A program made the translations under genes and the position numbers. Shown here in pieces: positions 1 to 14,408 of a stretch of 64,000 nucleotides of DNA (its first letter is position 1; each line of letters starts with the position of its first letter). Below the pieces are notes generated by a model, which was given only the letters and a program-made list of their open reading frames with translations, was not told the DNA's origin and made no database searches. Source of the DNA: a virus; the IMG/VR virus record IMGVR_UViG_3300045988_159685. One strand, written 5' to 3'.

Positions 1-503
1 CCATTACAAATCAAATACTCACTAAACCTAGGATCTATGTCATAATTATTCAATGTAGTTCTGTCACACTTTTTAAAATATGTTCCTTCCACATCAAACT
101 CTGAATTGGCTCTATCTGTATAACCATATGTATCAAATCCAATACATAATACACTTATATCATTGGTATACCAATTACCTCGATATAAAAGTAAATCGTT
201 TACAACACATAAGCAATGCTCGTTAGTAACTCCATAAGGAGCTCCCGATTTTCCAATAATAACGTCACCAATTTTAAATGGAAATTTATCGCCATCATCG
301 CAGTCACAGGACTCAAATATATCGACCCATCTATCAGCCAAATAACCATAACAAGTGCCAAATACATCATAACAAAACTGTTCTTTCAATCTTTTATATT
401 TCAAAACATCGTCAAAATCTATTATATATTTACGATGCTCAAAATGATCAATATGCTGGTCGTAGAACTCGCAAAGCAAATCTTTATGTCTTCTAAGTTT
501 CAT
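1..503 (-). CDS. hypothetical protein (3' end beyond window); N-terminus MKLRRHKDLLCEF relates it to the small paralog family
   Basis: Hand translation of the minus strand from ATG at 501-503 gives 167 sense codons open to nt 1. It is absent from the ORF track because it runs off the edge. It contains a KIGDVIIGKSG hairpin-like motif and overlaps the upstream gene by 11 nt. Confidence 0.5.
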   Translation of the reverse strand, partial: MKLRRHKDLLCEFYDQHIDHFEHRKYIIDFDDVLKYKRLKEQFCYDVFGTCYGYLADRWVDIFESCDCDDGDKFPFKIGDVIIGKSGAPYGVTNEHCLCVVNDLLLYRGNWYTNDISVLCIGFDTYGYTDRANSEFDVEGTYFKKCDRTTLNNYDIDPRFSEYLICN

Positions 504-828
504 CCACATTGTCAATACCTCTTAACTTACTCGGTTCTTCAAACAAATCTTTATGCCATCTTTTATCTGTAATCAAGCGTTTTGAACATTGGTTTTCTGC
601 GGAAAGCTTCCAATAACCAGAAAACGTACTATCATGTATTTTCACAATTTTACCACATAAAATATCCATGTCTCCACCTAAAATGCCATAGTCATTCAGA
701 TTACGTATATAATCATCTGTATTTCCGTATTCATAGTCATCGTCATATATGTCTGAGTCAAAACTATATTCACAACATAAATCCTTAAATCTCCTAATGC
801 GAACTTTGTCACCACTATTTAATATCAT
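493..828 (-). CDS. small paralog family member (GDKVRIRRxKDLxCEY family), function unknown
   Basis: 111-aa ORF with RBS-like AGGTGA upstream of the ATG. The N-terminus MILNSGDKVRIRRFKDLCCEY matches six other ORFs in the arm. Confidence 0.65.
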   Translation of the reverse strand: MILNSGDKVRIRRFKDLCCEYSFDSDIYDDDYEYGNTDDYIRNLNDYGILGGDMDILCGKIVKIHDSTFSGYWKLSAENQCSKRLITDKRWHKDLFEEPSKLRGIDNVDET

Positions 829-836
829 GATATCAC

Positions 837-2423
837 CTACTCATTCTCTGTAAGATATTCAGATTTATTAATATTTGAACTCCAAATAACTATTTCTTGA
901 TTTTCAGCAGTGTTGCCTGTTAATGAATTTGTAGAGGTTAGCCATTCCCCATTAAATAGGCTTTTCACGCCAGCTCCAATCTTAATCAAAGACAGGTTTG
1001 ATCCATACCTGTTGCAAGCATTGCGGAAGTTCATATAATCAGGAAAATTAAGATAATGCTCGCCGCTTATTACAAGACCTGACTCTTTTTTAACTGGCGT
1101 ATCTGAAATATCTATACCAACTTCAGAAAGTATCGAATTGAAACTTGCATTTACCGATTCATCTGTATAAATATTGCATGCAGGATACATTCTTGACTGA
1201 ACATATTCTGTATGATCCTTATTTATCATAAATAACTGCCTAAATATTTTATCGTTCTTATAGTAATCATTGTCAGAACAATTTTTATCAAGCCCATATG
1301 TAATAACGGTTACATCATCATTTGCATATGATAAACATCCAGCGTGCCAACCACCACGATTTTTAAAACTGTGACACGATGACCAACTGTTGCCATGTGA
1401 CATTGTAACAAAATCACATATATTTAGTGATACTACAAATTTAACCTGTAGAGGCCTTAAAGCCATGGCATCAAAACATTTTGCCGAGGCTTTGTTATAC
1501 TCCGTCCTATCGGCTAATTTGAATTTTTTCATAATTGCATTTATATTTCTACTAGCCTTTGCATTGACATTCATATCATCGTCATTTAAGCCGATTCTAT
1601 TTAAGTATTCTTTTATATTTCTATATGAGGATTCAACAAAACGAATACAATTGTCAACCGATTTGTAACTATACGAACTTGAAACTATAGCTGCTATGTA
1701 ATCATATACTGACAAGGTTTGACGTGAAAATACAGGTGATTCCGCAGACATTGTTTGGAATAATTCGCGAGCCGCAAACGCAACTACGTTATTATCTACA
1801 TTACGATTGATTGGCAAGTCAATGGCAATACATTTTTCTTTATCATTCCACTGCGGATGTTCTCTAAACAATGCAATTAAATCCTTTTTGGCTTCATACC
1901 AAGTTTTAAATTCGTTATAAATGTATTTATCTTTTGCCTGAGGATAATAGGTCTTTATTAATTTGTAGAAACAATCATAATTATACTTAAGATTGGAGTC
2001 CATCCAATCGGCGTTTTCTTCAATTGGTTCTTCAACAAATTTATAAGCTTTAAATGAGAGACTGCCATCAGAATAAATATACGGACGCCTTTTAAGTACA
2101 CCGTCCTGATAATATGAAAAAGTCTTTCTGCCAGATCCATATACAACAACTTTTTTATTTGTTCTACTAAGAATAACTGCGTCACCTGGAAGAAGTAACC
2201 TTGTATGCTGACCAGTAATGAAAACATATTTGTCCCCTAATATCTCATGCCCAAATACTTCTGCATCATACCATCGTCGAGCTACTATTTGTTTAGTTGC
2301 ATCAATGATAAGTGGTTTTTTAAAGTTTCCAATAAGTTTTGATTCACCAACTGTTACATATTCATCATTTTCATTTTTTTCAATATCATAGCCATAAACA
2401 CGTCCACAAAGTCTTATATACAT
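837..2423 (-). CDS. large Cys/His-motif protein, paralog A (function unknown)
   Basis: 528-aa ORF with RBS AAAGGAAG. It shares the blocks REHPQWNDKEKC / RKHPNWDEKNLC and SLNICDFVTMSHGNSWSSCH..WHAGCLSY / SVNPCDFLKMSYGEGWDSCH..YHAGTQSY with 5011-6897. Confidence 0.7.
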   Translation of the reverse strand: MYIRLCGRVYGYDIEKNENDEYVTVGESKLIGNFKKPLIIDATKQIVARRWYDAEVFGHEILGDKYVFITGQHTRLLLPGDAVILSRTNKKVVVYGSGRKTFSYYQDGVLKRRPYIYSDGSLSFKAYKFVEEPIEENADWMDSNLKYNYDCFYKLIKTYYPQAKDKYIYNEFKTWYEAKKDLIALFREHPQWNDKEKCIAIDLPINRNVDNNVVAFAARELFQTMSAESPVFSRQTLSVYDYIAAIVSSSYSYKSVDNCIRFVESSYRNIKEYLNRIGLNDDDMNVNAKASRNINAIMKKFKLADRTEYNKASAKCFDAMALRPLQVKFVVSLNICDFVTMSHGNSWSSCHSFKNRGGWHAGCLSYANDDVTVITYGLDKNCSDNDYYKNDKIFRQLFMINKDHTEYVQSRMYPACNIYTDESVNASFNSILSEVGIDISDTPVKKESGLVISGEHYLNFPDYMNFRNACNRYGSNLSLIKIGAGVKSLFNGEWLTSTNSLTGNTAENQEIVIWSSNINKSEYLTENE

Positions 2424-2478
2424 TTTTTATACTTCCTTTCGGTATTATTTACCGCATAGCATATACGGCATTGGCGGA

Positions 2479-2802
2479 TTAAACCGCCCTGCTCGCCTTG
2501 ATTTTATCATTGGCAATTTTAAATATTTTGAGGTAATATTCCAACCTTGCTTTTTTAATTTCATTATCGCCACACCATCGCATCTGCTTTTCAAGCTCAA
2601 TTATTAATTGAGGTATCGTGTAATTATCTTTTATAGTATTACAGTCGTGGCAGCATACAACTAAATTACTGACCTCGTCTTTACCACCTTTTGATACAGG
2701 TATGATATGGTCAAGCGTTTTATCTGATTTGATATACTTCCCACAATAAAAGCAGAAATCAGAATCTACCTCTTTGCGTACTTGTTCTGTGTAGTTTCGC
2801 AT
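2479..2802 (-). CDS. HNH endonuclease (small, free-standing)
   Basis: CFYCG..LDHIIPVSKGG..SNLVVCCHDCNTIK gives a CxxC / H-N-H / CxxC pattern. The start is placed at ATG 2802, directly after the terminator hairpin. In-frame ATGs at 2844, 2877 and 2904 are alternatives. No clear RBS. Confidence 0.7.
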   Translation of the reverse strand: MRNYTEQVRKEVDSDFCFYCGKYIKSDKTLDHIIPVSKGGKDEVSNLVVCCHDCNTIKDNYTIPQLIIELEKQMRWCGDNEIKKARLEYYLKIFKIANDKIKASRAV

Positions 2803-2807
2803 ATAAT

Positions 2808-2838
2808 AAAAAAAAAGAGGGCGACTAACGCCGCCCTC
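2808..2838 (-). terminator. rho-independent terminator after 2849-3565
   Basis: The minus strand reads GAGGGCG-GCGTTAGT-CGCCCTC followed by T9. Confidence 0.6.
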
Positions 2839-2848
2839 GTACATGTTG

Positions 2849-3565
2849 TTATCTAATGCCTCTGCTGTCGATTTCATGATTGATGAATTTCTGCAAATCA
2901 TCATATGTCATAGCGGCAATAGTATCATCGAGACCATACTCATCGTCACATGTTGACACTGGGTAAATCTTGTTTGCCTCGCAGATCATCTGATCAACAT
3001 TGCAATAATCGTCGCCATACTTTGTAGGATTGTCAACCGCAGTTCTATAAACCTCTACAATATCATAGTCGCTATTTGACACATGCTCCAGGGTGTCATT
3101 GTCAAACTTGGAAAGCCATGTAAAGCTGTTATTAGCTGTATGATATCTAACAATATCGCCGAACTCTGCGCCCTTAAATACTGTAGACCTCTTGCCGTTT
3201 CTATGAACAAGCATATCACCTGTTTTAAGGGAGTCGATTGTTATATCGTCGCCGTTAGCCTCGGCTGTAGCTCTGTCGTAAACAACTGTGCCGTACTCCA
3301 GCATCTTAAGTGGATTAAAAACAAGGTCGCCAATCTTATTGCTTGCAACGCCTATAGCACGATAAACCTTAACAATTGTCAGTCCATCTGCTCTCTTGTT
3401 TGTCATATCTGAATTGTAGTTTACGCCGAGTCTTGAGAATGAATTAAACTCAGTATGGAAGCGAAGCACATCTTCTCTAGCTGTGCCCTTCATAACTGTT
3501 GCCATCTTACCGTTTGCACATATAACGAGGTCGCCTGTCTTAAGATTAGAAATTGTAAATGTCAT
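2849..3565 (-). CDS. tandem-repeat protein (two ~115-aa repeats, each starting LKTGD(L/M)V..NGK), function unknown
   Basis: RBS AAGGAGA lies 7 nt before ATG 3565, so the ORF-track start 3649 is rejected. Internal duplication: ISNLKTGDLVICANGKMATVMKG..RFHTEFNSFSRL..IVKVYR versus IDSLKTGDMLVHRNGKRSTVFKG..RYHTANNSFTWL..IVEVYR. Confidence 0.65.
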   Translation of the reverse strand: MTFTISNLKTGDLVICANGKMATVMKGTAREDVLRFHTEFNSFSRLGVNYNSDMTNKRADGLTIVKVYRAIGVASNKIGDLVFNPLKMLEYGTVVYDRATAEANGDDITIDSLKTGDMLVHRNGKRSTVFKGAEFGDIVRYHTANNSFTWLSKFDNDTLEHVSNSDYDIVEVYRTAVDNPTKYGDDYCNVDQMICEANKIYPVSTCDDEYGLDDTIAAMTYDDLQKFINHEIDSRGIR

Positions 3566-3689
3566 AAAAATATCTCCTTTTAAATGTTTTAATATTAGTG
3601 TCATTTGAATTGATATGTAGCGCTTTTTATTCTGGTGGACTACGACCATGAATAATCATGTTTATCACCCCCTCCGTTCGTCGTTAGAC

Positions 3690-5009
3690 TTATTTACATA
3701 TCGCAACAGAAATTTCACTTTCTGGTTTGAAAGTTTCACAATCTGTCTCGTCGTTTGCTTCTCCCGGATACATTGCGTCGAGGAGTATCATCATAAAATC
3801 ATCACTAAGATTTGTGCAATATGTCATATCATAAATTGACAAATTCATTATATAGTCATTTATTTTTTCTATATTTTCATAAAACGCCCAAGGCATTTCC
3901 ATTGAATCCTCTTCGCGATAACTTATTAGATCGCCTTTATCATCAACCAGTTTATACTGTTCTTGTAAAGGATAATATAGAGCTGTATCTTCATCAAGGC
4001 CATATATTGTGCCGTCTTTATCAATCACATATTCATCCAGTGATTCAGTTGGCTTACTATCTGGCTCATTAAAGTTCTTTAAATAAACCTTGCTGTTTGG
4101 CACGCAAAGTTTCTTGTGAAAAATGCTACTATAAAGATCTAAGCCTAGCTGCGGTTCTTCGTCATAGAAATCGCTGACTGAATTTTTTGCTTTGCCGCCG
4201 CCATAATAATCCTCAATTTTAAACTGTCCATCTTTGTCATCGCTTTTTTGTTTTTTAATGTCATTACTGGCACTATAAAAATCATAGCCGTAATATCGCC
4301 CATAAAGGCCTGAATAATCATACTTGATTTTAACCTTTTCAATGTATTCATATCTTGGCGTTTCAGTATTGATGAGCACCATTGCACGCTTGATATTATT
4401 CTCAACATCTTCAAGGTTAATATATTCGTGCTGGGTATGAGGTGAATAGTACCCACTCGACAGATTAACGGCTGCAACCTTTAAATGCGGCGCAACGTGG
4501 CTTATATCACTACAACTACCCCATGCACTTTTGAAACCAACATCTGGATTTGTAATAAATTTTTCAAATTCATCATTATCACAATCGTAAAACACGGCGT
4601 CGTTTCCACTTTTTCTGTCAAACTCGATAATATAATTGAGTTTTTCTGGTACATATGAGGATTTGCAAAATTTTCTGGCTCCAACGCAACCAATTTCTTC
4701 ATCCTCGGTGAAGATTACTGAGCAATGAACGTCTTTGACAATTTGTAATATCATATAGATACCACAACGGTCATCACCTCCGATACCCTGTGGTGACATT
4801 ATATACTTGCCGTCTTCGGAAACGCACACAATCGTACAGTTATCATGATGTACGGTATCCATATGTGCCATTAGTAATACTGGATGCGTACCCTCTGCAT
4901 ATATGTAGCCGTCTTCATTTACAGGCGAATAACCTAAATTTTGAAGTTCTACAAAAAGCCTTTCTTTAAGCTTATCCTGTGGTAGTTTGCAAATCTCAAT
5001 AATATTCAT
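3690..5009 (-). CDS. M20 (peptidase T-like) dinuclear metallopeptidase domain fused to a ~220-aa C-terminal region of unknown function
   Basis: Motifs MAHMDTV, GIGGDDRCG, FTEDEEIGCVGA and SSGYYSPHTQHE resemble the PepT/M20 metal ligand blocks (H-D-E-E/D-H). RBS AGAGGTGG. Confidence 0.6.
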   Translation of the reverse strand: MNIIEICKLPQDKLKERLFVELQNLGYSPVNEDGYIYAEGTHPVLLMAHMDTVHHDNCTIVCVSEDGKYIMSPQGIGGDDRCGIYMILQIVKDVHCSVIFTEDEEIGCVGARKFCKSSYVPEKLNYIIEFDRKSGNDAVFYDCDNDEFEKFITNPDVGFKSAWGSCSDISHVAPHLKVAAVNLSSGYYSPHTQHEYINLEDVENNIKRAMVLINTETPRYEYIEKVKIKYDYSGLYGRYYGYDFYSASNDIKKQKSDDKDGQFKIEDYYGGGKAKNSVSDFYDEEPQLGLDLYSSIFHKKLCVPNSKVYLKNFNEPDSKPTESLDEYVIDKDGTIYGLDEDTALYYPLQEQYKLVDDKGDLISYREEDSMEMPWAFYENIEKINDYIMNLSIYDMTYCTNLSDDFMMILLDAMYPGEANDETDCETFKPESEISVAICK

Positions 5010-5010
5010 A

Positions 5011-6897
5011 TTAGTCCACCTCTTTTATTCCATCAATATCAACTATACATACATACTTGTCGTCAACATTAAGTGCACATAACGTATGTTCAGCACCATC
5101 GTACATCCACTTAAAAGTTTTTATTATTGTTCCAAAAATATTAAGATCATAGTAGCATTCACAAGCTTTTCTATCAAAAAGCTGTAATGTTGGAAACATC
5201 TCTTTTGCACTAAGAAAACGTATAAAAATTAAACCCTTTTTTGAAACAAAAACTTTTTTGCCAGCAATAAGTTTCTTTTCACGGCAATCTTTACACAATC
5301 CGTCAACTAACGAATTGTTACCATAAAACGCTTGATGACAACAATTACATTTATGAACACGATGCGGGGCATATAAAACATCATGTTCTTCGTCGTAACC
5401 CGCATAATTATCTACTTCTCTTACATAAAAATACTCATTGGTAATATCGTCAATAAAAAATGCCTCCTGTGTGCTCCAATCTTCCCCCTCATCACAATCG
5501 TCGCATATCATATTTCCTGAATTGCAAAGTTCATCGCCGCATTTCAAACACCAAGAACTATGCCCAATTGTAATATCATCGCCATCCCATATACTATCAA
5601 AAGCGTACAGATTAGTATTGTATTGCTCATAATTATAGTCTGGATAATGCAATGAGTTTTCCGCCGCGCAGATATGACTATGATCCACTTTTCTATACTC
5701 GTTTTTTATACCAAGACAATTGGATATTGCTTGCGAAACAAAATATGTATAAGTTGCGTCGCGCTGAGGTAACTTATAATTTGGATAGTTACGAGATTGC
5801 AATAGAAGCCCGTTCTGAAAACAATAAATCTGTCTTGTCAGCTTGTTGTTTTCCCATGGCTCGCCTACATATTGGTTTGACAAAGTATAAAAAATCATGC
5901 TCGAAGAATCCATTATATAAGACTGCGTTCCTGCATGATAACAACCGTGGTGCCCTACATGGTGACATGAATCCCATCCCTCACCATATGACATTTTTAG
6001 GAAGTCGCATGGATTTACTGAGAGTATTGCCACCTGCGTGTTTTTTAATGGGTTTACGGCATCGGCAATCACCGCAAAATCGTGATTGTAGTTTGGGTAT
6101 TTATCAAGTCCCATATCTACAAAAATCTTGTTAAGTTCACGAGAATACTTGGCCCCAACGGTCATATGTACGCCAACCGCCTCATACCTTTCTTTTATCT
6201 CCTTAGTAACAAACTGCTGTGGTTGGGTACACTGCACACCATCCCACATTATGTCTAATTGTTTGTCTGTCAGATACATACCGTTTTCACGGCAATTATG
6301 GTAAAATTCTTTACAAGCTTTAAGAAAGTCGTTACCGTCCTTTACACGAGTTTCTTCTACCTCACCTTTAATGCAAAGATTTTTTTCATCCCAATTAGGA
6401 TGTTTCCTCAATATAGAAAGCAGTTCTGCTTTGTTTGTAAAGAATTCATTAACGATATCGACAATAACGTCTTTATTATACTCGTAGCTTGCATCGTCAA
6501 GAATACTGCACATATTATTTACAATATCCATGCGTTCACAAGAACCCTGTGGTTCTTTTTCATGAGGCTTCATTGGAGCAAAAAACGTAAGCTCATCAGC
6601 TTCAGGTGAAATATAATGATATAAAGCCGATTCACCATTATTTTTTTCATATGTAAATGTTGCCGTAGAATCAATAACGTGTTTGGCTATTTTACATACC
6701 TTAACTTTTCTGCCGTTCTTACGCAGAACGATAGTGTCACCAATCTCAAAGAGGTTTTCACTAAGTTCACTGCGGTTATAGATTTCTCCCGACATCATAT
6801 AAACTTCGTCGCCTGCTATCTTCCTTATTCTGCCGATATACTCTCCACAACGAACAAGCTCAAATCTTCTTAATGTTTTAAATTTTTCTTCCGTCAT
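5011..6897 (-). CDS. large Cys/His-motif protein, paralog B, with Cys-rich (CxxC-rich) C-terminal extension
   Basis: 628-aa ORF with RBS AAGGAG. Conserved blocks shared with 837-2423. The C-terminus carries CLKCGDELCNSGNMICDDCDEG and CNCCHQ..CKDC clusters. Confidence 0.7.
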   Translation of the reverse strand: MTEEKFKTLRRFELVRCGEYIGRIRKIAGDEVYMMSGEIYNRSELSENLFEIGDTIVLRKNGRKVKVCKIAKHVIDSTATFTYEKNNGESALYHYISPEADELTFFAPMKPHEKEPQGSCERMDIVNNMCSILDDASYEYNKDVIVDIVNEFFTNKAELLSILRKHPNWDEKNLCIKGEVEETRVKDGNDFLKACKEFYHNCRENGMYLTDKQLDIMWDGVQCTQPQQFVTKEIKERYEAVGVHMTVGAKYSRELNKIFVDMGLDKYPNYNHDFAVIADAVNPLKNTQVAILSVNPCDFLKMSYGEGWDSCHHVGHHGCYHAGTQSYIMDSSSMIFYTLSNQYVGEPWENNKLTRQIYCFQNGLLLQSRNYPNYKLPQRDATYTYFVSQAISNCLGIKNEYRKVDHSHICAAENSLHYPDYNYEQYNTNLYAFDSIWDGDDITIGHSSWCLKCGDELCNSGNMICDDCDEGEDWSTQEAFFIDDITNEYFYVREVDNYAGYDEEHDVLYAPHRVHKCNCCHQAFYGNNSLVDGLCKDCREKKLIAGKKVFVSKKGLIFIRFLSAKEMFPTLQLFDRKACECYYDLNIFGTIIKTFKWMYDGAEHTLCALNVDDKYVCIVDIDGIKEVD

Positions 6898-6915
6898 TTT
6901 AAGACACTCCTTTTT

Positions 6916-7146
6916 TTATTTACCCATTAGAGGCATTACAAATTTAATAAATGTTATAGGATTAACATTTTGTCTTTCACATTCAGATATGATATCTTCC
7001 ATGTGCGTTGTTTTTGGTCTACATTTCGCTATTCGTTTCATAATGTAACGAAAAAGCAAATAGGTATGCGGGCTATTAATTTCCTTTATTTTTTCAAGCA
7101 AATCCAGGTATCGCTTAAAAAAGAAAACACTTTTTTCCAACCTCAT
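6916..7146 (-). CDS. hypothetical protein (76 aa)
   Basis: ORF with strong RBS AGGAGGTG. Confidence 0.5.
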   Translation of the reverse strand: MRLEKSVFFFKRYLDLLEKIKEINSPHTYLLFRYIMKRIAKCRPKTTHMEDIISECERQNVNPITFIKFVMPLMGK

Positions 7147-7164
7147 ATATTCACCTCCTAAAAA

Positions 7165-7425
7165 TTAAAGCGCTCTGCCGTCAAGGGATTCAAGCATGTA
7201 TAAATCAAAGACATAGTCATAATTAATGCCGAGTAAGTATCCATCATAACCATCAAAATCGTCTTCAAAAGCATCTATCGTGGTTTCTTCGCCACAAAAA
7301 TTATACATGTAACCAGCAAATGTATGTCCTACCTCAATTGCCCCATTTTTATCGTGTGGTTCTACAAACTCACACAATAAATCTTTGCACCGCCTAATCC
7401 GAACCCTATCTCCAATTTTAGTCAT
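7165..7425 (-). CDS. small paralog family member
   Basis: MTKIGDRVRIRRCKDLLCEF..FCGEE..LYMLESLDGRAL; RBS AGGAGA. Confidence 0.7.
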   Translation of the reverse strand: MTKIGDRVRIRRCKDLLCEFVEPHDKNGAIEVGHTFAGYMYNFCGEETTIDAFEDDFDGYDGYLLGINYDYVFDLYMLESLDGRAL

Positions 7426-7440
7426 ATCATCATCTCCTAT

Positions 7441-7737
7441 TTAATTTTCAGCAATAAGGCTACCGTCAAGGCGTTCTAACATATATGCGTTAAAATTGAA
7501 ACTGCACGCTTCATCTATACGAAAAATGTCATAACTTCCATCTATCAGAAACAGATTAATTATTTTGTGTTCCTCTCCACAGTATTTGCACATGGCGTCA
7601 ACAAAAGAACTATCCTTCTCAATTAAGATACCCCAATTACCAAACATTTCAACGCCGTCATACATTTCGATGTCTATATATTCACAGGCTAAATCTTTTA
7701 GTCGTCTAACCCTGATTTTGTCTCCAACTTGCAACAT
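7441..7737 (-). CDS. small paralog family member
   Basis: MLQVGDKIRVRRLKDLACEY..YCGEE..AYMLERLDGSLIAEN; RBS AGGAGG. Confidence 0.7.
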   Translation of the reverse strand: MLQVGDKIRVRRLKDLACEYIDIEMYDGVEMFGNWGILIEKDSSFVDAMCKYCGEEHKIINLFLIDGSYDIFRIDEACSFNFNAYMLERLDGSLIAEN

Positions 7738-7752
7738 ATCACCGCCTCCTAT

Positions 7753-8052
7753 TTAATTTTCAGCAATAAGACTGCCATCGAGATGTTCTAACATATACGC
7801 GTTCAAATTGAAAGGACATTTATACGCAGAAAAAACGGCACAACCTCTATATGGAGAATGGCGCGAATTTATTACGAGCTCCTGCCCACAAAAGACACAC
7901 ATGCTATCAATAAAAAAGCTTCCTTTGTCAATCAGAGCTATACATTCGCTACCAGTTCCGGATCCGATTAGTTTATACCTTTCAATATTCATGTGTTCAC
8001 AGGCTAAATCTTTTAGTCTTCTAACTCGAACTTTGTCACCCACCTGTATCAA
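7753..8052 (-). CDS. small paralog family member (TTG start)
   Basis: RBS AGGAGGTGG lies inside the ORF-track N-terminus and is followed 7 nt later by TTG at 8052. The product (M)IQVGDKVRVRRLKDLACEH..FCGQE..AYMLEHLDGSLIAEN is closely related to 7441-7737. Confidence 0.65.
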   Translation of the reverse strand: MIQVGDKVRVRRLKDLACEHMNIERYKLIGSGTGSECIALIDKGSFFIDSMCVFCGQELVINSRHSPYRGCAVFSAYKCPFNLNAYMLEHLDGSLIAEN

Positions 8053-8084
8053 AACAGTACCACCTCCTATCAAATAAATAATTG

Positions 8085-8558
8085 TTAAAGATTAAAGTTA
8101 AACTTAATCATTTTATCATTAAACCAATTACATAATTTTATATATTTAGTTATGTCATAAAGCATAATCTGATTATATTCACAATTATAATGGTCAATAA
8201 AATCAGGAATATATCTTAGCCTAAAATCATCTGGGGTAATTTGATATAAGCCTCTGCCATAAAAATCATTGCCCTTTATCTTATACCCACAAAGCATACT
8301 TATAAAAGAGTAAGTATCTTCATTATTAATCCATACGACCTTTTCTGTTGAAAGCCTATCTTTTATAGTGTGAAGTGCAAGTGTTTTATGCCAAGTCAAA
8401 ACGGCTCCTACATTAACTGTATTATCTGTTATTGTAGGAGTGAATATAAGGAATTCTCTACAAGCGGGGTTTGTTTTATATTCTTCTTGTATAGCTCTTT
8501 CACGATTGGTATATGTAGTTCCGTTTGTAATTGTATAGGCATGGGTTTCTTTTAGCAT
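8085..8558 (-). CDS. hypothetical protein (157 aa)
   Basis: ATG at 8558 is preceded by AGGGAGG. The ORF-track start at 8567 is a TTG inside the RBS spacing. Confidence 0.55.
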   Translation of the reverse strand: MLKETHAYTITNGTTYTNRERAIQEEYKTNPACREFLIFTPTITDNTVNVGAVLTWHKTLALHTIKDRLSTEKVVWINNEDTYSFISMLCGYKIKGNDFYGRGLYQITPDDFRLRYIPDFIDHYNCEYNQIMLYDITKYIKLCNWFNDKMIKFNFNL

Positions 8559-8588
8559 ATAATACAACCTCCCTTATAGTTTTATCAT

Positions 8589-8912
8589 CTACACCCATAA
8601 TTGATTATCCAACTCTTCCAAATCTTCTTCAGTATATTCTCTAACGTTTTTTCCACATCTTTCAAACATATATTCTGCAAAGGCAAAAGGCAATTCTCGA
8701 CCACAATTAGTTTCAAGCCTATAAATATTATGATTGCAGAAGTAAAAATCCTTTATAAAGAATTCTTTTCCGCAATATGGAATCATGCTTTTGATGAAAT
8801 GAATATATCCGAAAATCAATGCGTTACCACAATACTGTGGAGACGGAGTTTCAAACTCGCACCGCATATCCTTAAGAGATCTTATTCGCACTTTGTCGCC
8901 TATCTGATACAT
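8589..8912 (-). CDS. small paralog family member
   Basis: MYQIGDKVRIRSLKDMRCEF..YCGKE..EYMFERCG; RBS AGAGGTGA. The 5' end lies in a 45-bp perfect repeat. Confidence 0.7.
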   Translation of the reverse strand: MYQIGDKVRIRSLKDMRCEFETPSPQYCGNALIFGYIHFIKSMIPYCGKEFFIKDFYFCNHNIYRLETNCGRELPFAFAEYMFERCGKNVREYTEEDLEELDNQLWV

Positions 8913-8932
8913 TAAAAATCACCTCTTTTCAA
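8888..8932. repeat. 45-bp perfect direct repeat, copy 1
   Basis: gcactttgtcgcctatctgatacattaaaaatcacctcttttcaa is identical at 9158-9202 (period 270 nt). It spans the first codons, RBS and upstream stop of adjacent paralogs. Confidence 0.9.
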
Positions 8933-9182
8933 ACATATATTCCTCAAAAGTAGATAAAAGAGGGGCTCTATTTATGGTTTCAAGTAGATAACATTTACGC
9001 CCATCCACATATCTTAGTTGACGAATATGATATTGCTGCCCACAAAAAATAACCATGTACTTTAAAAAACCTGTCCCTTTTCTTATTAATAAATTCCCAA
9101 CATAGTACGGCGGCATCGTTTCATATTCACACAGCATATCTTTTAAACGCCTCATTTGCACTTTGTCGCCTATCTGATACAT
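8919..9182 (-). CDS. small paralog family member
   Basis: MYQIGDKVQMRRLKDMLCEY..FCGQQ..EYMFEKR; same RBS as 8589-8912. Confidence 0.7.
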   Translation of the reverse strand: MYQIGDKVQMRRLKDMLCEYETMPPYYVGNLLIRKGTGFLKYMVIFCGQQYHIRQLRYVDGRKCYLLETINRAPLLSTFEEYMFEKR

Positions 9183-9202
9183 TAAAAATCACCTCTTTTC
9201 AA
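9158..9202. repeat. 45-bp perfect direct repeat, copy 2
   Basis: Identical to 8888-8932. Confidence 0.9.
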
Positions 9203-9772
9203 TAGGTCATTTACGATGTCCTTAAAGAGTTTGCGTAATTTCGGGTTATTTTCTATAACCTCATGTTTTGAGGTTACATTTGCCCTCTTCATACGATTAC
9301 TCCATACGATGCCATATCTTGCAGACATTTCACCATAAATACGCCGCAATGTGGCATTATACCCCAGAGAGTTATCGTCACGCCTTTGCGCAAGAGGAGC
9401 CGCCACCATTGAACAAGTGACATCGATTAGTTCTACCGGTGTAAGATCTAATTTTCTTACATTCATATTATCCATAATGTGGTATGTAAATGTTGTTCTT
9501 TCAACAATTCTGAATTTTAAAAAGTCAAGAAAATCTTTGCCATCACAATGTCTTGTTTCGTATTTGCGACTAAAGCCCCATACACGGCAAAACTCATTAA
9601 TAGTTTCATTGATAAGTTGTTCTGTTTTTCTACGTGCTGTCGTTTCTTTCCCAAATGTTTTTATTAAAAAATGGTTATATACATTAGTAAGCAAAACGCT
9701 TTTCCATTCATCCGCGCCGAGCACTCTCCCAAGAATTTGTTCGTCGCGTGTAGCCCTTTCAATCTTTTTCAT
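9182..9772 (-). CDS. hypothetical protein (196 aa)
   Basis: ORF with RBS-like GAAGGGA. The stop overlaps the start of the downstream paralog. Confidence 0.55.
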   Translation of the reverse strand: MKKIERATRDEQILGRVLGADEWKSVLLTNVYNHFLIKTFGKETTARRKTEQLINETINEFCRVWGFSRKYETRHCDGKDFLDFLKFRIVERTTFTYHIMDNMNVRKLDLTPVELIDVTCSMVAAPLAQRRDDNSLGYNATLRRIYGEMSARYGIVWSNRMKRANVTSKHEVIENNPKLRKLFKDIVNDLLKRGDF

Positions 9773-9847
9773 GTAAATCTATCCCTTCTTTTTTTATTAT
9801 GTAGTTATATGAAACTACATATCAGTAATACTATTGGTTGCATTATT

Positions 9848-9922
9848 TGGTGACTCGTGCAGGAATTGCACCTACGATTCCATCCTGAGAAGATAGCGTC
9901 TTAACTACTTGACCAACGAGCC
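9848..9922 (-). tRNA. tRNA-Glu-like, anticodon CUC (copy A), non-canonical T-loop
   Basis: Hand fold of GGCTCGT..ACGAGTC-A-CCA. Anticodon stem CTATC/GATGG, loop TTCTCAG, T-stem GTAGG/CCTGC. The T-loop is TGCAATT rather than TTCRANN. The body resembles Bacillus-type tRNA-Glu (GG.C.GTTGGTCAAG.GGTTAAGAC). Confidence 0.55.
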
Positions 9923-10005
9923 ATAAGCCCATAAGGGCTTTTTAATACTATGGGATTATTGGAGGTGAAGAACCATAGTATGTATCAGGAATTACCCTCG
10001 CGCTG

Positions 10006-10081
10006 TGGCTGGAGTGGCTGGACTCGAACCAGCGGAATGACGGAGTCAAAGTCCGTTGCCTTACCTCTTGGCTACACTCCA
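10006..10081 (-). tRNA. tRNA-Gln (anticodon UUG)
   Basis: TGGAGTG..CACTCCA-G-CCA. Anticodon stem ACGGA/TCCGT, loop CTTTGAC, T-arm GCTGG-TTCGAGT-CCAGC. The layout parallels E. coli tRNA-Gln. Confidence 0.8.
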
Positions 10082-10107
10082 ATATAGCCCGTAAAAGCGG
10101 GCATTTT

Positions 10108-10380
10108 TTACAACTTTTTACCATCAAGGGTTTCGAACATATATTCCGTCCAAGCCCAACACGTGATTTCATTCAACGTATATTCGCCTGTATCTCCATA
10201 TCCTCTATCCTGAATCTCCGTTATACTGTGAATTTCTCCACAATATATATACATTGATGGGTTAAAACTTAAATATGAATTTTTGGGGCGTAATGGTTCA
10301 TCTTCTTGATTGTTGTAACTATATTCGCAAAGCAGGTCTTTTTTACGCCTTATTCTGACTTCATTGCCGATTTTTAGCAT
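10108..10380 (-). CDS. small paralog family member
   Basis: ATG 10380 is preceded by GGAGGTG. MLKIGNEVRIRRKKDLLCEY..YCGEI..EYMFETLDGKKL. Confidence 0.7.
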   Translation of the reverse strand: MLKIGNEVRIRRKKDLLCEYSYNNQEDEPLRPKNSYLSFNPSMYIYCGEIHSITEIQDRGYGDTGEYTLNEITCWAWTEYMFETLDGKKL

Positions 10381-10912
10381 TATGCACACCTCCAATTTTG
10401 TATGGAATCTGAGTTACTCCAAGTTTTTTTGCGGCAATGTATCTGGCATAGCCGTCTTTCAAAATTTTGTTGCCCTTAGCATCAAGCTTTATAGTTATGG
10501 GGTTATCGAAAATTCCATAATATTTATAGAAACAGATAGCCCTGTCCACCTTTTCTTTCTTTGGCGGATGATTCATAAAGTCTCTGGGTATGTACACTTT
10601 ATCTACATCTATGAGCTTTTTGAAGTTGCTCATAAAAGCGGGGCGACTAATGTTTACAACTATCGCATTTATAGTTGCTACGCCATCACGCTTGGAGATT
10701 TCGTAATCTCTTCGACCTGTAATCAAAGAATATGTATCACGGGAATTTCGCCGCACAATTACAACGAGGTTGTCTTTTGTGCCGAGTTTTTCAGTGTCGA
10801 TACTCTTCTTGTGTACACTATCTGTCAGCATGATGTTCCTAACTGGTATAGGAATCGCCTGCGCCGCCATTCTTGACCTGAAATTTTTTATATTGTTAAA
10901 ACAGTACGCCAT
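10361..10912 (-). CDS. ParB/sulfiredoxin-like domain protein (two ParB-N-like halves)
   Basis: VVIVRRNSRDTYSLITGRRDYEISKRDGVATINAIVV resembles the ParB N-terminal pattern (IxVR..x..Y.(I/L)I.G.RR..A....G...I.A.V). A second half reads KILKDGYARYIAAKKLGVTQIPYKI. RBS AGGAGG. Confidence 0.5.
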   Translation of the reverse strand: MAYCFNNIKNFRSRMAAQAIPIPVRNIMLTDSVHKKSIDTEKLGTKDNLVVIVRRNSRDTYSLITGRRDYEISKRDGVATINAIVVNISRPAFMSNFKKLIDVDKVYIPRDFMNHPPKKEKVDRAICFYKYYGIFDNPITIKLDAKGNKILKDGYARYIAAKKLGVTQIPYKIGGVHNAKNRQ

Positions 10913-10941
10913 AATTTCTACCTCCTATTTTTTATAATGGC

Positions 10942-11017
10942 TGGTGTGCCATTCGGGATTTGAACCCGAGACCTTTCGATTAAAAGTCGAATGCTCTACC
11001 AATTGAGCTAATGGCAC
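10942..11017 (-). tRNA. tRNA-Lys (anticodon UUU), copy 1
   Basis: GTGCCAT..ATGGCAC-A-CCA. Anticodon stem TTCGA/TCGAA, loop CTTTTAA, T-arm TCGGG-TTCAAAT-CCCGA. Confidence 0.85.
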
Positions 11018-11149
11018 ATAGACCGCCGTGGCGGTCAGCATTGTAACCCATGGTTACACAGATTACAATTTAATTACAAAGTGGTGACATAATTCAATCG
11101 ACCGTGTTACTTAAATGTAACTCGCAAGCTTTTTAGCTTGCATTTGAAT

Positions 11150-11190
11150 AAAAAAAATAACGACGGATTAACCAAAGTTGACCCGTCGTT
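11150..11190 (-). terminator. rho-independent terminator (minus strand)
   Basis: The minus strand reads AACGACGG-16 nt loop-CCGTCGTT, then A and T8. Confidence 0.5.
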
Positions 11191-11291
11191 AAATATATAA
11201 AATGGACACTTTTCAGCCTTGTGGATAACCTACGGTCAAGTTATGACGCACCTTAACCAAACTCAAGGGTTTTGTAAAATCTTAATTGTTG

Positions 11292-11370
11292 TGCTTTAAG
11301 ATTTAAGCTTTAGACGATTATAAGCTTTGAACTTTCGTAATTAAATTTTCAGCTTTATGCCTTAAGCTTT
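11292..11370. repeat. five iterated (A/T)AGCTTT(A/G) motifs
   Basis: GCTTT cores start at 11293, 11307, 11324, 11352 and 11366. A related hairpin gcaagct-ttt-agcttgc lies at 11124-11140. Confidence 0.5.
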
Positions 11371-11377
11371 ATCTTAT

Positions 11378-11419
11378 TACTCGTACAGGAATTGAACCTG
11401 TAATGCAACCAGTCGAGCA
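11378..11419 (-). pseudogene. tRNA-like remnant (acceptor + T-arm minihelix, no anticodon arm, no CCA)
   Basis: The minus strand reads TGCTCGA-CTGGTTGCATT-ACAGG-TTCAATT-CCTGT-ACGAGTA. It resembles the 5' and 3' ends of the Glu-like tRNAs. Confidence 0.35.
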
Positions 11420-11581
11420 ACAAAACATTCCCACAAAAAAGGAATATCATATATCTTCGTATAGACTACGATAGCTATTACTTATATTTGAGGCCAGATT
11501 TTTATTATTTTACTTTGTGAATATAGCCTAAAACACAAAGGTCATAAAATTAAAGGTTTTCAAAAAGCACCCATTTTTTGC

Positions 11582-12223
11582 TTAGTACGAAATTTCGATT
11601 TCGGTTATAGCGTTCGATACGCTGATAGCCGAGTCAAAATCAATCTTAAACTTGTCTATACGATCGACAAGGTCAGAAATGATTTCGGCAGTGTCAAAAC
11701 CCTCGATAATTTCAAAAGTGTTCGCCTTTATGAAATTGGTTTTCGCCTCCTCTATTTCCTTTGTAACAGCTTTACCGTCTTTTGAACCAAACATTCCAAG
11801 TACATACTCATCGGCACGCCCCTGTAATGTTTCGCCGTTCTCATAATTACATCTGTCCTGTGCAGCTTTAAGCTGTTTAGACATATGCTTCAAAAGATCT
11901 TCCTCAAATTCAATGCCGTGATTCTTATACTCTATAGCCTCGGCAATAGTCAGTTTCATACCCTGTATTGTGACTTCGGTCTCGGCATTTGAAAGCGTAA
12001 CGGCACGCTTAATTGCCTTACGCCTTTTTATAAGGTCGGCTATTTTGTCATAGCTCGCCTTGAAGCCATTCTTAGCTTCTTCAATAGAGACGCCATTTAT
12101 CTTTGTGTTGCTATGTTTGTTCTCAACCACAAATTTTGCATCTTTGATAAGGGCGGGTATCCTCTTATCGAGAATCTTAAGCTCACAAAGTGCCTGATGA
12201 ATCGTCATTTTTTCGTTAGTCAT
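11582..12223 (-). CDS. hypothetical protein (213 aa, helical/coiled-coil-like)
   Basis: ORF with RBS AAGGAG. Confidence 0.6.
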   Translation of the reverse strand: MTNEKMTIHQALCELKILDKRIPALIKDAKFVVENKHSNTKINGVSIEEAKNGFKASYDKIADLIKRRKAIKRAVTLSNAETEVTIQGMKLTIAEAIEYKNHGIEFEEDLLKHMSKQLKAAQDRCNYENGETLQGRADEYVLGMFGSKDGKAVTKEIEEAKTNFIKANTFEIIEGFDTAEIISDLVDRIDKFKIDFDSAISVSNAITEIEISY

Positions 12224-12277
12224 TTCAAAAACTCCTTTGAATTTTAAAATTTACAGACCTGATTATGCCTGTATTGA

Positions 12278-12337
12278 TGGTGGCTCACACAGGATTTACA
12301 CCTGTACTCTCACTGGGGATAAGAGTCTATTTGAGCC
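12278..12337 (-). pseudogene. 60-nt truncated tRNA-like element (no D-arm), CCA-ended
   Basis: The minus strand reads GGCTCAA-ATAG-ACTCT-(11-nt loop)-AGAGT-ACAGG-TGTAAAT-CCTGT-GTGAGCC-A-CCA. Confidence 0.35.
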
Positions 12338-12390
12338 ATAGCGATGCAAAGCATCGCACTCAGAAAAAGAAGGGAATGCCCAAAACGGGC

Positions 12391-12466
12391 TGGTGACTCA
12401 CGCAGGATTTGAACCATGCAATTCCGCCCTGAGAAGGCGGCGTCTTAACCGTTTGACCAGTGAGCC
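12391..12466 (-). tRNA. tRNA-Glu-like, anticodon CUC (copy B), bulged T-stem
   Basis: GGCTCAC..GTGAGTC-A-CCA. Anticodon stem CCGCC/GGCGG, loop TTCTCAG. The T-arm GCA(T)GG-TTCAAAT-CCTGC needs one bulged nucleotide. Confidence 0.55.
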
Positions 12467-12490
12467 ATAAGGCGGAGAACTCCGCCTATA

Positions 12491-13435
12491 TTACTTTTCT
12501 TTAAAGGTTGGCGAACAGCTCTCAAAGAATTCTTTTACGTTGACATTGTATTTCTCAAGAATCGCAACGATAACTTTTTGTACCTTGTCCCATTCGTCAT
12601 CTTTGATATACTGAATATACGGTGTCTTGCGATTGCCACGCTTTTTGAGGTCAATCCCGTAGCGATAACTAAGCTGCTTATATAGCATACTGAAAGCCAC
12701 GCCGAAACTGATATGCAAAGTCGAAGCAAACTTACGCATAACTCTGTTGAACATTTTGCGGTCTGAAATATGTAAGACCTCGGCTGTTAAAAGCTTGTTT
12801 GACGTTTCAATTCTGTCGATATGACGCCGCTGAAACGCCGTGTAAGCCTGGGCGGCTGTCGCAAATTCCATGATATCACCCGTGGCAAAAGCCTTGCCGA
12901 TTGCCGCTTGGAGCTTTTCTTCGTCGTCGATATCTTGCGTGAGAAGTTCGGGCTTTTCCTCGGCGGTGTGTTCGACAATGTTTAGGAGCTGTGTCCTGAC
13001 CTCTTGGGCTATCTTGCTATCACGAAGAAGCATGCCTATTCTGAGGATGGCACGCTTTGAGAAACACTTGATGCCTCGGTTTGGGATTTCAAGGTGGGTA
13101 TTATCGTCGATTTGGATAACAAGTTTGCCGTTTTGTTGCTCAAAATTCTTAAAGGTACAACTTGTACCTTTAAGAATTTCTTTAAAGATTGTAGGCGTTT
13201 TAGTTGCAACGCCATCACCCTCAATCTCAGTGCGGTTTCGCTGACAACAACGCTTTATAGTATCAATATCAACCTCATAATAATCCGCCACCTGCCTAAT
13301 AGTCATACAGTTCATCTCAGGTATCAAAAGCAGCTTCTTAACCTTATCAAGAACCTCAGTTCTGGCAATAAGCTCGTTTCTGAGGTCATGGTTGTCTACC
13401 ATGCTTTCGCTCGTGATGATTTTACTTTCTGGCAT
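12491..13435 (-). CDS. HTH DNA-binding regulator (antirepressor/Rha-like layout)
   Basis: MTIRQVADYYEVDIDTIKRCCQRN looks like a helix-turn-helix. The central KRAILRIGMLLRDSKIAQEVRTQLLN segment resembles those of Firmicutes phage antirepressor-type proteins. RBS GAGGAGGTG. Palindromic operator-like repeats lie upstream. Confidence 0.5.
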   Translation of the reverse strand: MPESKIITSESMVDNHDLRNELIARTEVLDKVKKLLLIPEMNCMTIRQVADYYEVDIDTIKRCCQRNRTEIEGDGVATKTPTIFKEILKGTSCTFKNFEQQNGKLVIQIDDNTHLEIPNRGIKCFSKRAILRIGMLLRDSKIAQEVRTQLLNIVEHTAEEKPELLTQDIDDEEKLQAAIGKAFATGDIMEFATAAQAYTAFQRRHIDRIETSNKLLTAEVLHISDRKMFNRVMRKFASTLHISFGVAFSMLYKQLSYRYGIDLKKRGNRKTPYIQYIKDDEWDKVQKVIVAILEKYNVNVKEFFESCSPTFKEK

Positions 13436-13496
13436 AATTTCACCTCCTCTTGTAAAACAAATTGAACATCTTGCTTAGTTAGTAACCTAAATTCTT

Positions 13497-13629
13497 AACG
13501 GAACAAGTTGTTCCTTTAAGAAATATCCATCTTTAATGGGATAAGTTGTTCCTTTAAAAGCACTTGAATAGAGTTTAGACTTTTTTGCTATAATGCCATT
13601 TGAACTAACGGAACATCTTGTTCCTTTAG
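13497..13629 (-). promoter_or_regulatory. three operator-like repeats, TAACGGAACA(A/T)(G/C)TTGTTCCTTTA
   Basis: Palindrome GGAACAAGTTGTTCC at 13500-13514 and GGAACATCTTGTTCC at 13610-13624. A half-degenerate copy AAGTTGTTCCTTTAA lies at 13543-13557 and a partial copy at 13463-13476. Confidence 0.55.
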
Positions 13630-13660
13630 TAATTTTTAAAGATATTAAACTTACCTCTGC

Positions 13661-13834
13661 CTAACATTTAAGACTTATAATAACCGCAATCACCGTTATA
13701 ATCAGATTAAGCAGTGCGCCGATCCACAGTGGTGATACCACCCAAAGCCAACTCCAGCATATAACTTTAGTCAGTTTCAGTATGATAAATACGATAGTAA
13801 GCAGTCCGCAAAAACCAATTCCGCCGCTCTTCAT
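13661..13834 (-). CDS. small membrane protein (57 aa, two hydrophobic segments)
   Basis: Below the ORF-track cutoff. Hand translation gives MKSGGIGFCGLLTIVFIILKLTKVICWSWLWVVSPLWIGALLNLIITVIAVIISLKC. Strong RBS AAGGGAGGG. Confidence 0.5.
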   Translation of the reverse strand: MKSGGIGFCGLLTIVFIILKLTKVICWSWLWVVSPLWIGALLNLIITVIAVIISLKC

Positions 13835-13836
13835 AA

Positions 13837-14070
13837 TTATTCTCCCTCCCTTACAATATGAAATTTATCCACGCCGTAAATAACGCCAAGTGAGCGCCCA
13901 TTGTCAAAATTGCAATGAATCGTACCAGCGTCATCGACATGATCAACCGTTCCAAGCGTATTCGGCTCAACTGGGTATGGATCATCAACCATTTTCTCAA
14001 GGCATATTCTTGTACCCTCGGGGAAAACTCTTTTGAGCCAAGATATCCTCTTGTCATTGTATAAACTCAT
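13837..14070 (-). CDS. DUF4314-like protein
   Basis: FPEGTRICLEKMVDDPYPVEPNTLGTVDHVDDAGTIHCNFDNGRSLGVIYGVDKF matches my recollection of the DUF4314 signature (DDPY..P.GT.GTV..VDD.G.IH..WDNGRSL). ATGA start/stop overlap with the upstream gene. Confidence 0.55.
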   Translation of the reverse strand: MSLYNDKRISWLKRVFPEGTRICLEKMVDDPYPVEPNTLGTVDHVDDAGTIHCNFDNGRSLGVIYGVDKFHIVREGE

Positions 14071-14408
14071 ACCTTGCCTCTTTCAAACTCAATAACACCG
14101 CCATCGGCATCAACGACAACTGGGCGAATTGATAGGATATTTCTTGTGAATAAAAACGCACAGGCTAATGGCACGGCAATAACCGCACTCTCGGGCATAG
14201 CTATAGCCATAACGCCCATAGCAAAGCCGAGAACTTTCTGCATAATCCACAACACTTTGGCTGCTTTTCTTTCAAGTCTGCGGCTTTTATAGCTTTCTAT
14301 GCGCTTTTTAAGCTCTCTTTCTTCTTTGTCACGTTCTTCTGCGTGTTTCATAGATCTGATTAACTTTGTCAGGTCGTATGTATTATGTACGTTTTCAAAA
14401 GCGTCCAT
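14067..14408 (-). CDS. membrane protein (113 aa)
   Basis: RBS GGAGGTG. Charged N-terminal helix followed by two hydrophobic segments (VLGFAMGVMAIAM.., VIAVPLACAFLF). Confidence 0.55.
   Translation of the reverse strand: MDAFENVHNTYDLTKLIRSMKHAEERDKEERELKKRIESYKSRRLERKAAKVLWIMQKVLGFAMGVMAIAMPESAVIAVPLACAFLFTRNILSIRPVVVDADGGVIEFERGKV

Follow-up and report, generated by a model that had tools for sequence, protein, structure and literature searches.

Seven loop-variable paralogues with a predicted SH3-like fold in the leftward arm of a probable gut Ruminococcus phage

Why would a phage keep seven divergent copies of one small gene within about 10 kb of its genome? The question is raised by a stretch of 64,000 nucleotides (nt) from the viral record IMGVR_UViG_3300045988_159685 of IMG/VR (the whole stretch is hereafter called the window), in which an earlier note, made from the letters alone, had described eight minus-strand open reading frames (ORFs) as an expanded family of small proteins with a conserved frame. 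All eight ORFs were found where the note had placed them, both in the ORF list and by direct translation. Seven of them (c111, c86, c98, c99, c107, c87 and c90; Table 1) could be aligned over their full length and share invariant residues (G6, R12, K15, D16, C19, E20, followed by M, C-G and E). A profile hidden Markov model (HMM), built from the seven copies and distant relatives, recognised exactly seven members among the 955 six-frame ORFs of the window (E 5e-30 to 2e-20), and the next match, the best non-member, reached only E 0.12, so that a chance pattern is excluded. The eighth ORF, at 1-509, did not belong with the others (HMM E 0.74; hhalign probability 2.2%). A Shine-Dalgarno (SD) site lies upstream of all seven copies. 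The start codons proposed earlier proved right: TTG at 8052 and ATG at 10380 are each preceded by a GGAGG-type ribosome-binding site, which the longer versions of these two ORFs in the mechanical list lack, and the protein lengths counted from the chosen starts equal those of the gene calls on related contigs. The seven copies are real, selectively maintained genes. The variable middle of about 50 amino acids was described roughly correctly; however, the variable part consists of two loops, split by a conserved F..M..(F/Y)CG..I core. The general picture holds: a small module, rich in beta structure, constant in its frame and variable inside, has multiplied within the leftward accessory arm of a phage.

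The earlier note had not recognised the family as a named one, and the copies themselves give little away. A Pfam scan of the eight ORFs returned nothing significant, and the seven copies did not match SH3_15 even at E ≤ 1. The phrog_7488 profile was matched weakly (profile positions ~3-69) by c98 and c90 (E 2.2e-4 and 2.5e-4) and by c99 and c107 (E 0.09-0.096); the same scan gave no match for c111, c86 and c87. The relatives were more informative. A word-indexed profile search retrieved 94 of them, all unnamed or 'hypothetical' and some from genomes of Ruminococcus bicirculans or Ruminococcus sp., and more distant relatives matched phrog_7488 at E 1e-9 to 6e-13, with sub-threshold matches to SH3_15. 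An HMM search of phage and metagenome proteins had been proposed in the earlier note; an exhaustive one, on 1.84 billion cluster representatives, yielded 6,450 proteins at E ≤ 1e-3 (1,319 at E ≤ 1e-10), many of which carry 2-6 tandem copies of the domain in a polypeptide of 200-700 amino acids. The best 139 representatives of the 6,450 were used for all counts of Pfam, PHROG, PADLOC and export-signal matches. The phrog_7488 profile was matched by 102 of these 139 (best E 7e-59), Pfam SH3_15 (PF18346) by 31 at E ≤ 1e-3 (best 2.8e-11), and the SH3-like C-terminal domain of nitrile hydratase beta by 13. The gathering score of SH3_15 (24 bits) was exceeded by P0104 (36.4 bits), P0096 (32.1 bits), P0119 (30.0 bits) and an ORF of contig L028 (24.6 bits). 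Since the relatives match whereas the window copies fail the Pfam threshold, the membership of the latter in SH3_15 is transitive only. Judged by these profiles, the window family appears to be a divergent, lineage-specific branch of a very large, catalogued, functionally uncharacterised phage domain family, PHROG 7488 / SH3_15-like. It is not a well-characterised family with a housekeeping role; PHROG 7488 has no assigned function, and for this reason membership in it explains no mechanism.

Other searches added little. The literature searched on SH3_15 or the 'Mind bomb SH3 repeat' in phages held nothing relevant and no described function for family members, and two sequence searches of the PDB with family profiles gave noise only. 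Megablast of positions 1-11000 against phages matched nothing but a transfer RNA (tRNA-Gln), tblastn of the relative P0088 against phages found no match, and neither did two single-protein scans of GTDB representative genomes. A consensus-like query of 75 amino acids (the A3/A4 consensus) did find the domain in Enterococcus Saphexavirus and C. perfringens phages. In Enterococcus phage SAP6 it is the N-terminal, SH3-like domain of a 195-amino-acid protein (JF731128.1 22072-22659; L036 3001-3588), which is labelled 'cytidine deaminase' in several Saphexavirus records. No domain of this protein had a Pfam match at E ≤ 1e-3, and the annotation looks unfounded.

The fold was predicted with AlphaFold2 on c90, with a mean local confidence (pLDDT) of 89.2 and a predicted template-modelling score (pTM) of 0.81. 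The model runs from a strand (VRIR) through a helix (KDLLCEY), a long loop and a short helix (F..M..YCG) to three strands and the YMFE turn. Its nearest folds in the PDB were all SH3-like barrels (the C-terminal domain of nitrile hydratase beta, PetP, PsaE, SH3 and KOW), although no PDB neighbour reached E ≤ 1e-3 and the top ones had E ≥ 0.8. In BFVD, uncharacterised phage proteins were found at probability 1.0 and E 7e-4 to 1e-2, several of them automatically named Mind bomb SH3 repeat or nitrile hydratase beta; Mind bomb structures were not among the best 50 PDB fold matches. Each copy is thus predicted to form one SH3-like beta-barrel into which a helix-loop-helix is inserted, and of the SH3, KOW or Tudor-like folds suggested earlier the SH3-like guess was right. 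Like Pfam SH3_15, the domain opens its barrel with a (K)VGD+V+V strand; the difference is that in the window family the place taken by the RT loop in classical SH3 domains is occupied by the helix-loop-helix insertion. In eukaryotes, the REP domain of Mind bomb binds the tails of Notch ligands, and no such role is implied for the phage family. With PHROG 7488 the domain appears identical by transitive profile evidence, but the window lineage has R-x-K-D-L-x-C-E-Y in place of the helix W-D-D-M-x-K-E-F-G, as well as an invariant extra cysteine and the LDG tail. Across most distant relatives this helix-loop-helix insertion has the sequence W-D-D-M-x-K-E-F-G-(V/L)-D-x-x-G-D-I-...-F-V-x-x-M (wide profile A4, positions 3-41). 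A comparison of this insert with EF-hand 4 of calmodulin was not significant (E 0.33), and its D-x-x-G-D-I loop does not occur in the window lineage.

The rate of evolution was compared between the family and its surroundings. The ratio of non-synonymous to synonymous substitution rates (dN/dS), which the earlier note had wished to see along the paralogues, was determined on orthologues from eleven related loci and amounted to 0.25-0.57 for the family versus 0.1-0.25 for neighbouring genes; the corresponding amino acid identities were 72-83% and 89-100%. Purifying selection acts on the copies, but their evolution is two- to threefold faster than that of the genes around them. When codons were assigned to the frame or to the two loops gene by gene from the structure model, the frame had a pooled ratio (omega) of 0.39 and the loops one of 0.62. 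With each distinct codon variant counted once, the ratio of non-synonymous to synonymous changes (N/S) was 133:71 for frame codons; for loop codons it was 101:25 (Fisher p=0.004 for the difference), which is near the neutral expectation of 4:1. In the c99 slot the contrast was sharper (loops 12:0, frame 5:7, p=0.005), from small counts and related alleles. The codon counts show a freedom that is specific to the loops and do not prove positive selection. An entropy analysis over 5-44 unique alleles per slot located the variation in the same two loops, while GDKVRIRRxKDLxCE and YM(L/F)E.LDG were invariant across alleles. One allele, P0008, is 90-97% identical to the DNA of c99 outside about 55 nt of loop 1, within which the identity falls to 33-47% and a 6-nt indel occurs, which amounts to a cassette-like replacement. 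The neighbouring c98 was rejected as the donor (23-50% identity). Diversification of loop 1 in the manner of a diversity-generating retroelement was also rejected, given the indel and changes at all base types; no template repeat was present in 7100-10450 beyond the paralogue junctions, and no search was aimed at a reverse transcriptase.

How the array arose can be read from the paralogues and their junctions. The paralogues are 26-55% identical in amino acid sequence, and adjacent pairs are the closest (Table 1). The array grew by tandem duplications, which are old given this divergence and do not reflect a recent burst. The best-conserved DNA lies at the gene junctions (5' coding end, SD site and the preceding 3' end) and forms direct repeats of 91-141 nt with 75-77% identity (Table 1), which apparently serve as substrates for unequal recombination. 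Related phage or prophage contigs have from five to seven copies, placed at syntenic slots. L007-L010 and L042-L044 lack the c98 slot; the c87 slot is present in L003, L005, L006 and L012 and absent in L001, L002, L004 and L007-L011. In the lineage of the P0008 allele a single gene occupies the c99 and c98 slots, and its 3' flank is that of c98, which is consistent with loss or gain of c98 by recombination between junction repeats. A truncated copy occurs in L011. Individual copies are dispensable. The array is also an insertion-prone region, since many relatives either have a 413-amino-acid RRXRR-HNH endonuclease gene (L002 8385-9626; L007 1793-3034) in place of the 160-amino-acid ORF of 8085-8567 (minus strand), which lies between c107 and c99, or lack that ORF altogether. 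In L020, two copies (8103-8409 and 9641-9971) are each split by frameshifts into two overlapping ORFs, either as pseudogenes or through assembly errors. Clusters of 5-6 stand-alone members were found on two unrelated viral contigs, L031 (212 kb) and L035 (104 kb), and expansion, as tandem genes and as tandem domains, is therefore a recurrent habit of the family. Taken jointly, the identity, fold class and evolutionary history of the array can be held with high confidence.

The phage itself is a common one. The exact 98-amino-acid protein was found in 120 blocks of a public assembly index and an orthologue of the 111-amino-acid protein in 569, on contigs from below 2 kb to 1.8 Mb and mostly from human gut metagenomes. 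From the many occurrences and the contigs of up to 1.8 Mb, the phage is judged to be widespread and probably integrating. It is probably a temperate gut Ruminococcus phage, a host assignment based on the source names of relatives (Ruminococcus bicirculans / Ruminococcus sp.) and on the presence of the locus in contigs as long as 1.8 Mb. The leftward arm (1 to ~17.2 kb) holds the family, seven tRNA genes and genes for HNH, ParB_N-like and M20/M28-like peptidase proteins, and the rightward arm holds the exonuclease, terminase, portal, tape-measure and tail genes. Just outside the window, to its left, the related contigs have genes for isochorismatase, a PRPS-like and a NAMPT-like protein and NAD synthase, followed by an RNA ligase gene. 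Such NARP1-like clusters for the reconstitution of nicotinamide adenine dinucleotide (NAD+) lie at L007 11481-15184, L001 17925-20297, L039 2981-7062 and L035 16590-20196, and Prs-like and NAMPT-like genes are found less than 10 kb from family members in three diverged lineages (that of the window, L039/L040 and L035). The PRPS-like Adps and NAMPT-like Namat together make up NARP1, a demonstrated phage counter to NAD+-depleting immunity (10.1101/2024.02.11.579819; PMC12774641). The association of the family with the NAD+ cluster is suggestive.

What the copies do can be proposed with less assurance. We suggest that each copy would be a small cytoplasmic binding protein, acting as an adaptor or a stoichiometric inhibitor. 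The constant frame, made up of the strand-helix GDKVRIRRxKDLxCEY, the core F..M..YCG..I and the end YM(L/F)E-LDG, would give the fold and possibly a common docking face, and the two variable surface loops would set the binding target. Neither a hydrophobic N-terminal nor a transmembrane segment was found in 135 of the 139 relatives, and the isoelectric point (pI) of the copies is 4.3-5.2 in five of seven and 6.8 and 9.2 in the other two; for cytoplasmic, mostly acidic proteins, protein binding fits better than nucleic-acid binding. The targets would most probably be host proteins, immune effectors included, because of the location in the accessory arm, the allelic turnover of the loops, the NARP1-like neighbourhood and the precedent of Nip (phi3T_120), an SH3-like phage protein which binds and inhibits the NADase SpbK (PMC11984713). 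Nip resembles the window copies by analogy only, as a phage accessory protein of SH3-like domains in the context of NAD+-depletion defence. It differs in having 279 amino acids, two SH3-like domains and an HU-like dimerisation domain, while the window copies are single-domain proteins of 86-111 amino acids. Homology to Nip was rejected, as both family profiles scored only -0.4 and 0.5 bits on it in hmmsearch. The array would then be an individually dispensable host-interaction or counter-defence repertoire, genetically linked to the NARP1-like cluster. As a whole, this explanation, an SH3-like paralogue array of loop-diversified binding proteins, is the best that we can give and falls slightly short of being probable; the binding or counter-defence function in itself is tentative and rather doubtful. 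A bolder version would make the array a phage 'monobody library' of small inhibitors, each for a different immune protein, especially NAD+-consuming effectors (TIR, SIR2), coupled to the NARP1-like cluster and with specificities renewed by junction recombination and loop-cassette replacement. That version we consider improbable; if it were true, the phage would both block and repair NAD+ depletion.

Several observations weigh against the proposal of a binding repertoire. The evolution of the loops is compatible with simple relaxed constraint, and whole-gene omega is below 1; the loop excess occurs in c99 alone (12:0) and comes from small, non-independent counts. The NAMPT genes of the three lineages are 58-61% identical, so the linkage may be inherited synteny, and eight other viral loci with family members had no Prs-like or NAMPT-like genes within their flanks. 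A PADLOC-DB scan of the 139 relatives was empty apart from one marginal match to ZorA (E 8e-4), no homology to any characterised anti-defence protein emerged from the PADLOC and Nip comparisons, and the empty PDB sequence search provided no homology-based link to a characterised function. Finally, the fusion partners of the domain in other phages point to nucleotide metabolism and not obviously to defence: they include nucleotide-kinase PHROGs / DUF3310 (3 of 139), DUF6378, dGTP_diPhyd_N, DUF1599, MazG-like and GNAT domains, and a C5 methylase-like region with a weak match (22.2 bits).

These fusions, together with the NAD/nucleotide genes and the RNA ligase nearby in the window lineage, speak for a domain that would act as a targeting or regulatory unit, bringing phage enzymes of nucleotide metabolism or DNA modification to one shared partner, which would be the replisome, DNA or an enzyme of the nucleotide pool, with the stand-alone copies modulating such enzymes of the phage or the host. 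In most relatives, however, no partner domain can be recognised, the copies of the window consist of one domain each and are mostly acidic, and one metabolic role would hardly explain seven divergent copies with free-running loops; we therefore regard this alternative as fairly unlikely. The copies might instead be adaptors for neighbouring proteins of the phage itself; these could be the NAD enzymes, the M20/M28-like peptidase or the large proteins of 837-2423 and 5011-6897, on which the constant face would dock while the loops tuned specificity or assembly. The strict synteny of the copies with their neighbour genes in all related contigs would suit such a role, and the strong conservation of the N-terminal 21 amino acids and the C-terminal YMLE-LDG at a paralogue identity of 26-55% suggests a common docking surface. 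Yet distant members are found in phages without these neighbours, and the conserved termini may be fold determinants or may have been homogenised by gene conversion at the junction repeats, which leaves adaptors of this kind unlikely.

The copies may also have no role at all, as inert, fast-evolving duplicated ORFans that hitch-hike in a recombination-prone accessory region. Dispensable slots, the frameshifted or truncated copies in L020 and L011 and loops that evolve at about the neutral rate are what such inertness would predict. It is nevertheless very unlikely, since the frame is under purifying selection (omega ~0.4; 133:71 versus a neutral ratio of about 4:1), all copies of the window are intact with strong SD sites, the fold motifs are retained by paralogues down to 26% identity, and the family has been kept across thousands of phage lineages. 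Least credible, to the point of being scarcely worth entertaining, are cell-wall-binding proteins of the SH3b type or lysis accessories. The fold does belong to the SH3 clan, and stand-alone SH3 proteins (DUF7244) have been described in the lysis modules of Drexlerviridae as variably present 'shell' genes, sometimes beside HNH genes (PMC13164509). DUF7244 and SH3b proteins are, like the window copies, small stand-alone SH3-clan phage proteins, but they belong to another Pfam family and stand in lysis cassettes, and the role proposed for them involves peptidoglycan or endolysin. The window family, by contrast, is cytoplasmic and present in several copies, and it lies well away from lysis genes, in the arm opposite the structural and lysis genes. 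The copies had no Pfam match to SH3_3, SH3_5 or SH3_8, and the scarcity of signal peptides or transmembrane segments among the 139 relatives argues in the same direction.

The copies differ from one another in several respects (Table 1). The most divergent is c111, with a long, acidic loop 1; its 3' end overlaps the start of the downstream 186-amino-acid gene by 17 nt, and its orthologues comprise 44 unique alleles with 70-98% identity and a dN/dS of 0.25-0.45. The dN/dS of orthologues was 0.49-0.57 for c86 and 0.40-0.56 for c107, which has an acidic C-terminal extension. The sole basic copy is c87 (pI 9.2). The start of c90, the copy that was modelled, falls within the 3' end of the ParB_N-like gene at 10361-10912. 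As for the cysteines (c90 numbering), that of K-D-L-x-C-E-Y (C19) is present in all seven window copies and not in the wider family, that of Y-C-G (C47) is invariant across the whole family, and a third precedes the last strands in five of the seven window copies.

Table 1. Coordinates of the family copies, the excluded partial ORF and the direct repeats at the gene junctions
Feature	Coordinates	Strand	HMM E-value	SD site	Remarks
c111, 111 aa (amino acids)	493..828	-	2.3e-20	SD-like GAGTAGGTG upstream	
c86, 86 aa	7165..7425	-	1e-26	TAGGAG	
c98, 98 aa	7441..7737	-	9e-28		tandem partner of c99 (55% aa identity)
c99, 99 aa	7753..8052	-	9e-26	TAGGAGGTGG ahead of TTG	TTG start at 8052
c107, 107 aa	8589..8912	-	1.3e-27	AGAGGTG	
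c87, 87 aa	8919..9182	-	4e-26		tandem partner of c107 (48% identity)
c90, 90 aa	10108..10380	-	4.7e-30	TGGAGGTG	copy modelled by AlphaFold2
Partial ORF	1..509	-			ATG at 509; 186 aa in relatives; common stretch RRHKDLLCEF only
Junction direct repeat	7361-7501 / 7673-7813				76% identity
Junction direct repeat	7660-7750 / 7975-8065				75% identity
Junction direct repeat, c107/c87 pair	8815-8932 / 9085-9202				77% identity

The ORF that was left out shares one short stretch with the family (Table 1), and its C-terminal half is a different small domain. A weak DNA alignment, which is not significant, hints that the 3' end of 493-828 may have overprinted the first strand of this ORF. The ORF, possibly a degenerate derivative, is not counted as a member. 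The count of about a dozen duplicated and shuffled modules likewise turned out too high: GD-x-V hairpins elsewhere are without HMM support, and seven copies remain. The 'related hairpin' pointed out in 837-2423, 5011-6897 and 2849-3565 is a generic motif, as the family HMM finds nothing there and [LIVM]xxGDx[VIL] occurs in window ORFs at 0.3-0.66 per 1000 amino acids, unrelated proteins included. A profile-profile comparison of the 2849-3565 family with the seven-copy family gave a probability of 0.35%. The idea of the same module in the large paralogues and in 2849-3565 was rejected at the sequence level on these three grounds, and any kinship of 2849-3565 to the family would be at the level of the fold class at most. 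The 238-amino-acid protein of 2849-3565 (minus strand) has an internal duplication, LKTGD.V...NGK..TV.KG...R(F/Y)HT..NSF..., and its model (pLDDT 84) shows a pair of small beta-barrels, then helices and an acidic tail; a fold search with this model returned no significant structural neighbour, and the protein belongs to a rare unnamed family with 29 matches. The genes at 837-2423 and 5011-6897 (minus strand) encode paralogues of 528 and 628 amino acids (E 9e-28 over a core of ~300 amino acids) with the core motif N-x-CDF-x-x-MS-x-G-x-x-W-x-SCH ... HAG-x-x-SY, the larger one ending in a Cys-rich CxxC tail. They matched nothing in Pfam or PHROG and had only 13 unnamed homologues in 5.8 billion proteins.

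Other features of the leftward arm were recorded along the way. Its seven tRNA genes (9848-14922, minus strand) are tRNA-Glu(CTC) x3, tRNA-Lys(TTT) x2, tRNA-Gln(TTG) and tRNA-Leu(TAA), interspersed with accessory genes. A perfect sigma-70 consensus promoter (TTGACA-17-TATAAT; 18366-18394, plus strand) faces the rightward arm and a 10/12 promoter match (17819-17791, minus strand) faces the leftward arm; the two arms are probably controlled divergently from this region. A strong terminator-like hairpin at 2838-2817 (minus strand; 9 bp, 7 GC, T9) lies inside the longest HNH ORF (2479-2904, minus strand, 141 amino acids), which overlaps the end of 2849-3565. In relatives a 115-amino-acid HNH gene starts downstream of the terminator, and the mechanical start of the HNH ORF is probably wrong. 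A 77-amino-acid DUF4314 protein at ~13837-14070 (minus strand; L003 3673-3906), known from precomputed Pfam matches on relatives, represents another small SH3-like phage and plasmid family. Several unrelated small beta-barrel proteins accumulate in this arm.

What is new in this locus is the lineage-specific sub-branch and its expansion, within a domain family that is known and uncharacterised; it is not a new kind of system. The PHROG 7488 / SH3_15-like domain is an abundant piece of phage 'dark matter', often present as tandem domains or genes. If the copies were simple adaptors or dispensable, the array would be an ordinary paralogue expansion of an uncharacterised domain. The locus is nonetheless a clean natural experiment: one scaffold underlies seven paralogues, metagenomes supply hundreds of alleles, copies turn over, variation is confined to the loops and a NARP1-like neighbourhood recurs. 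The array offers a well-defined candidate set for anti-defence or host-factor screens in phages of gut Firmicutes.

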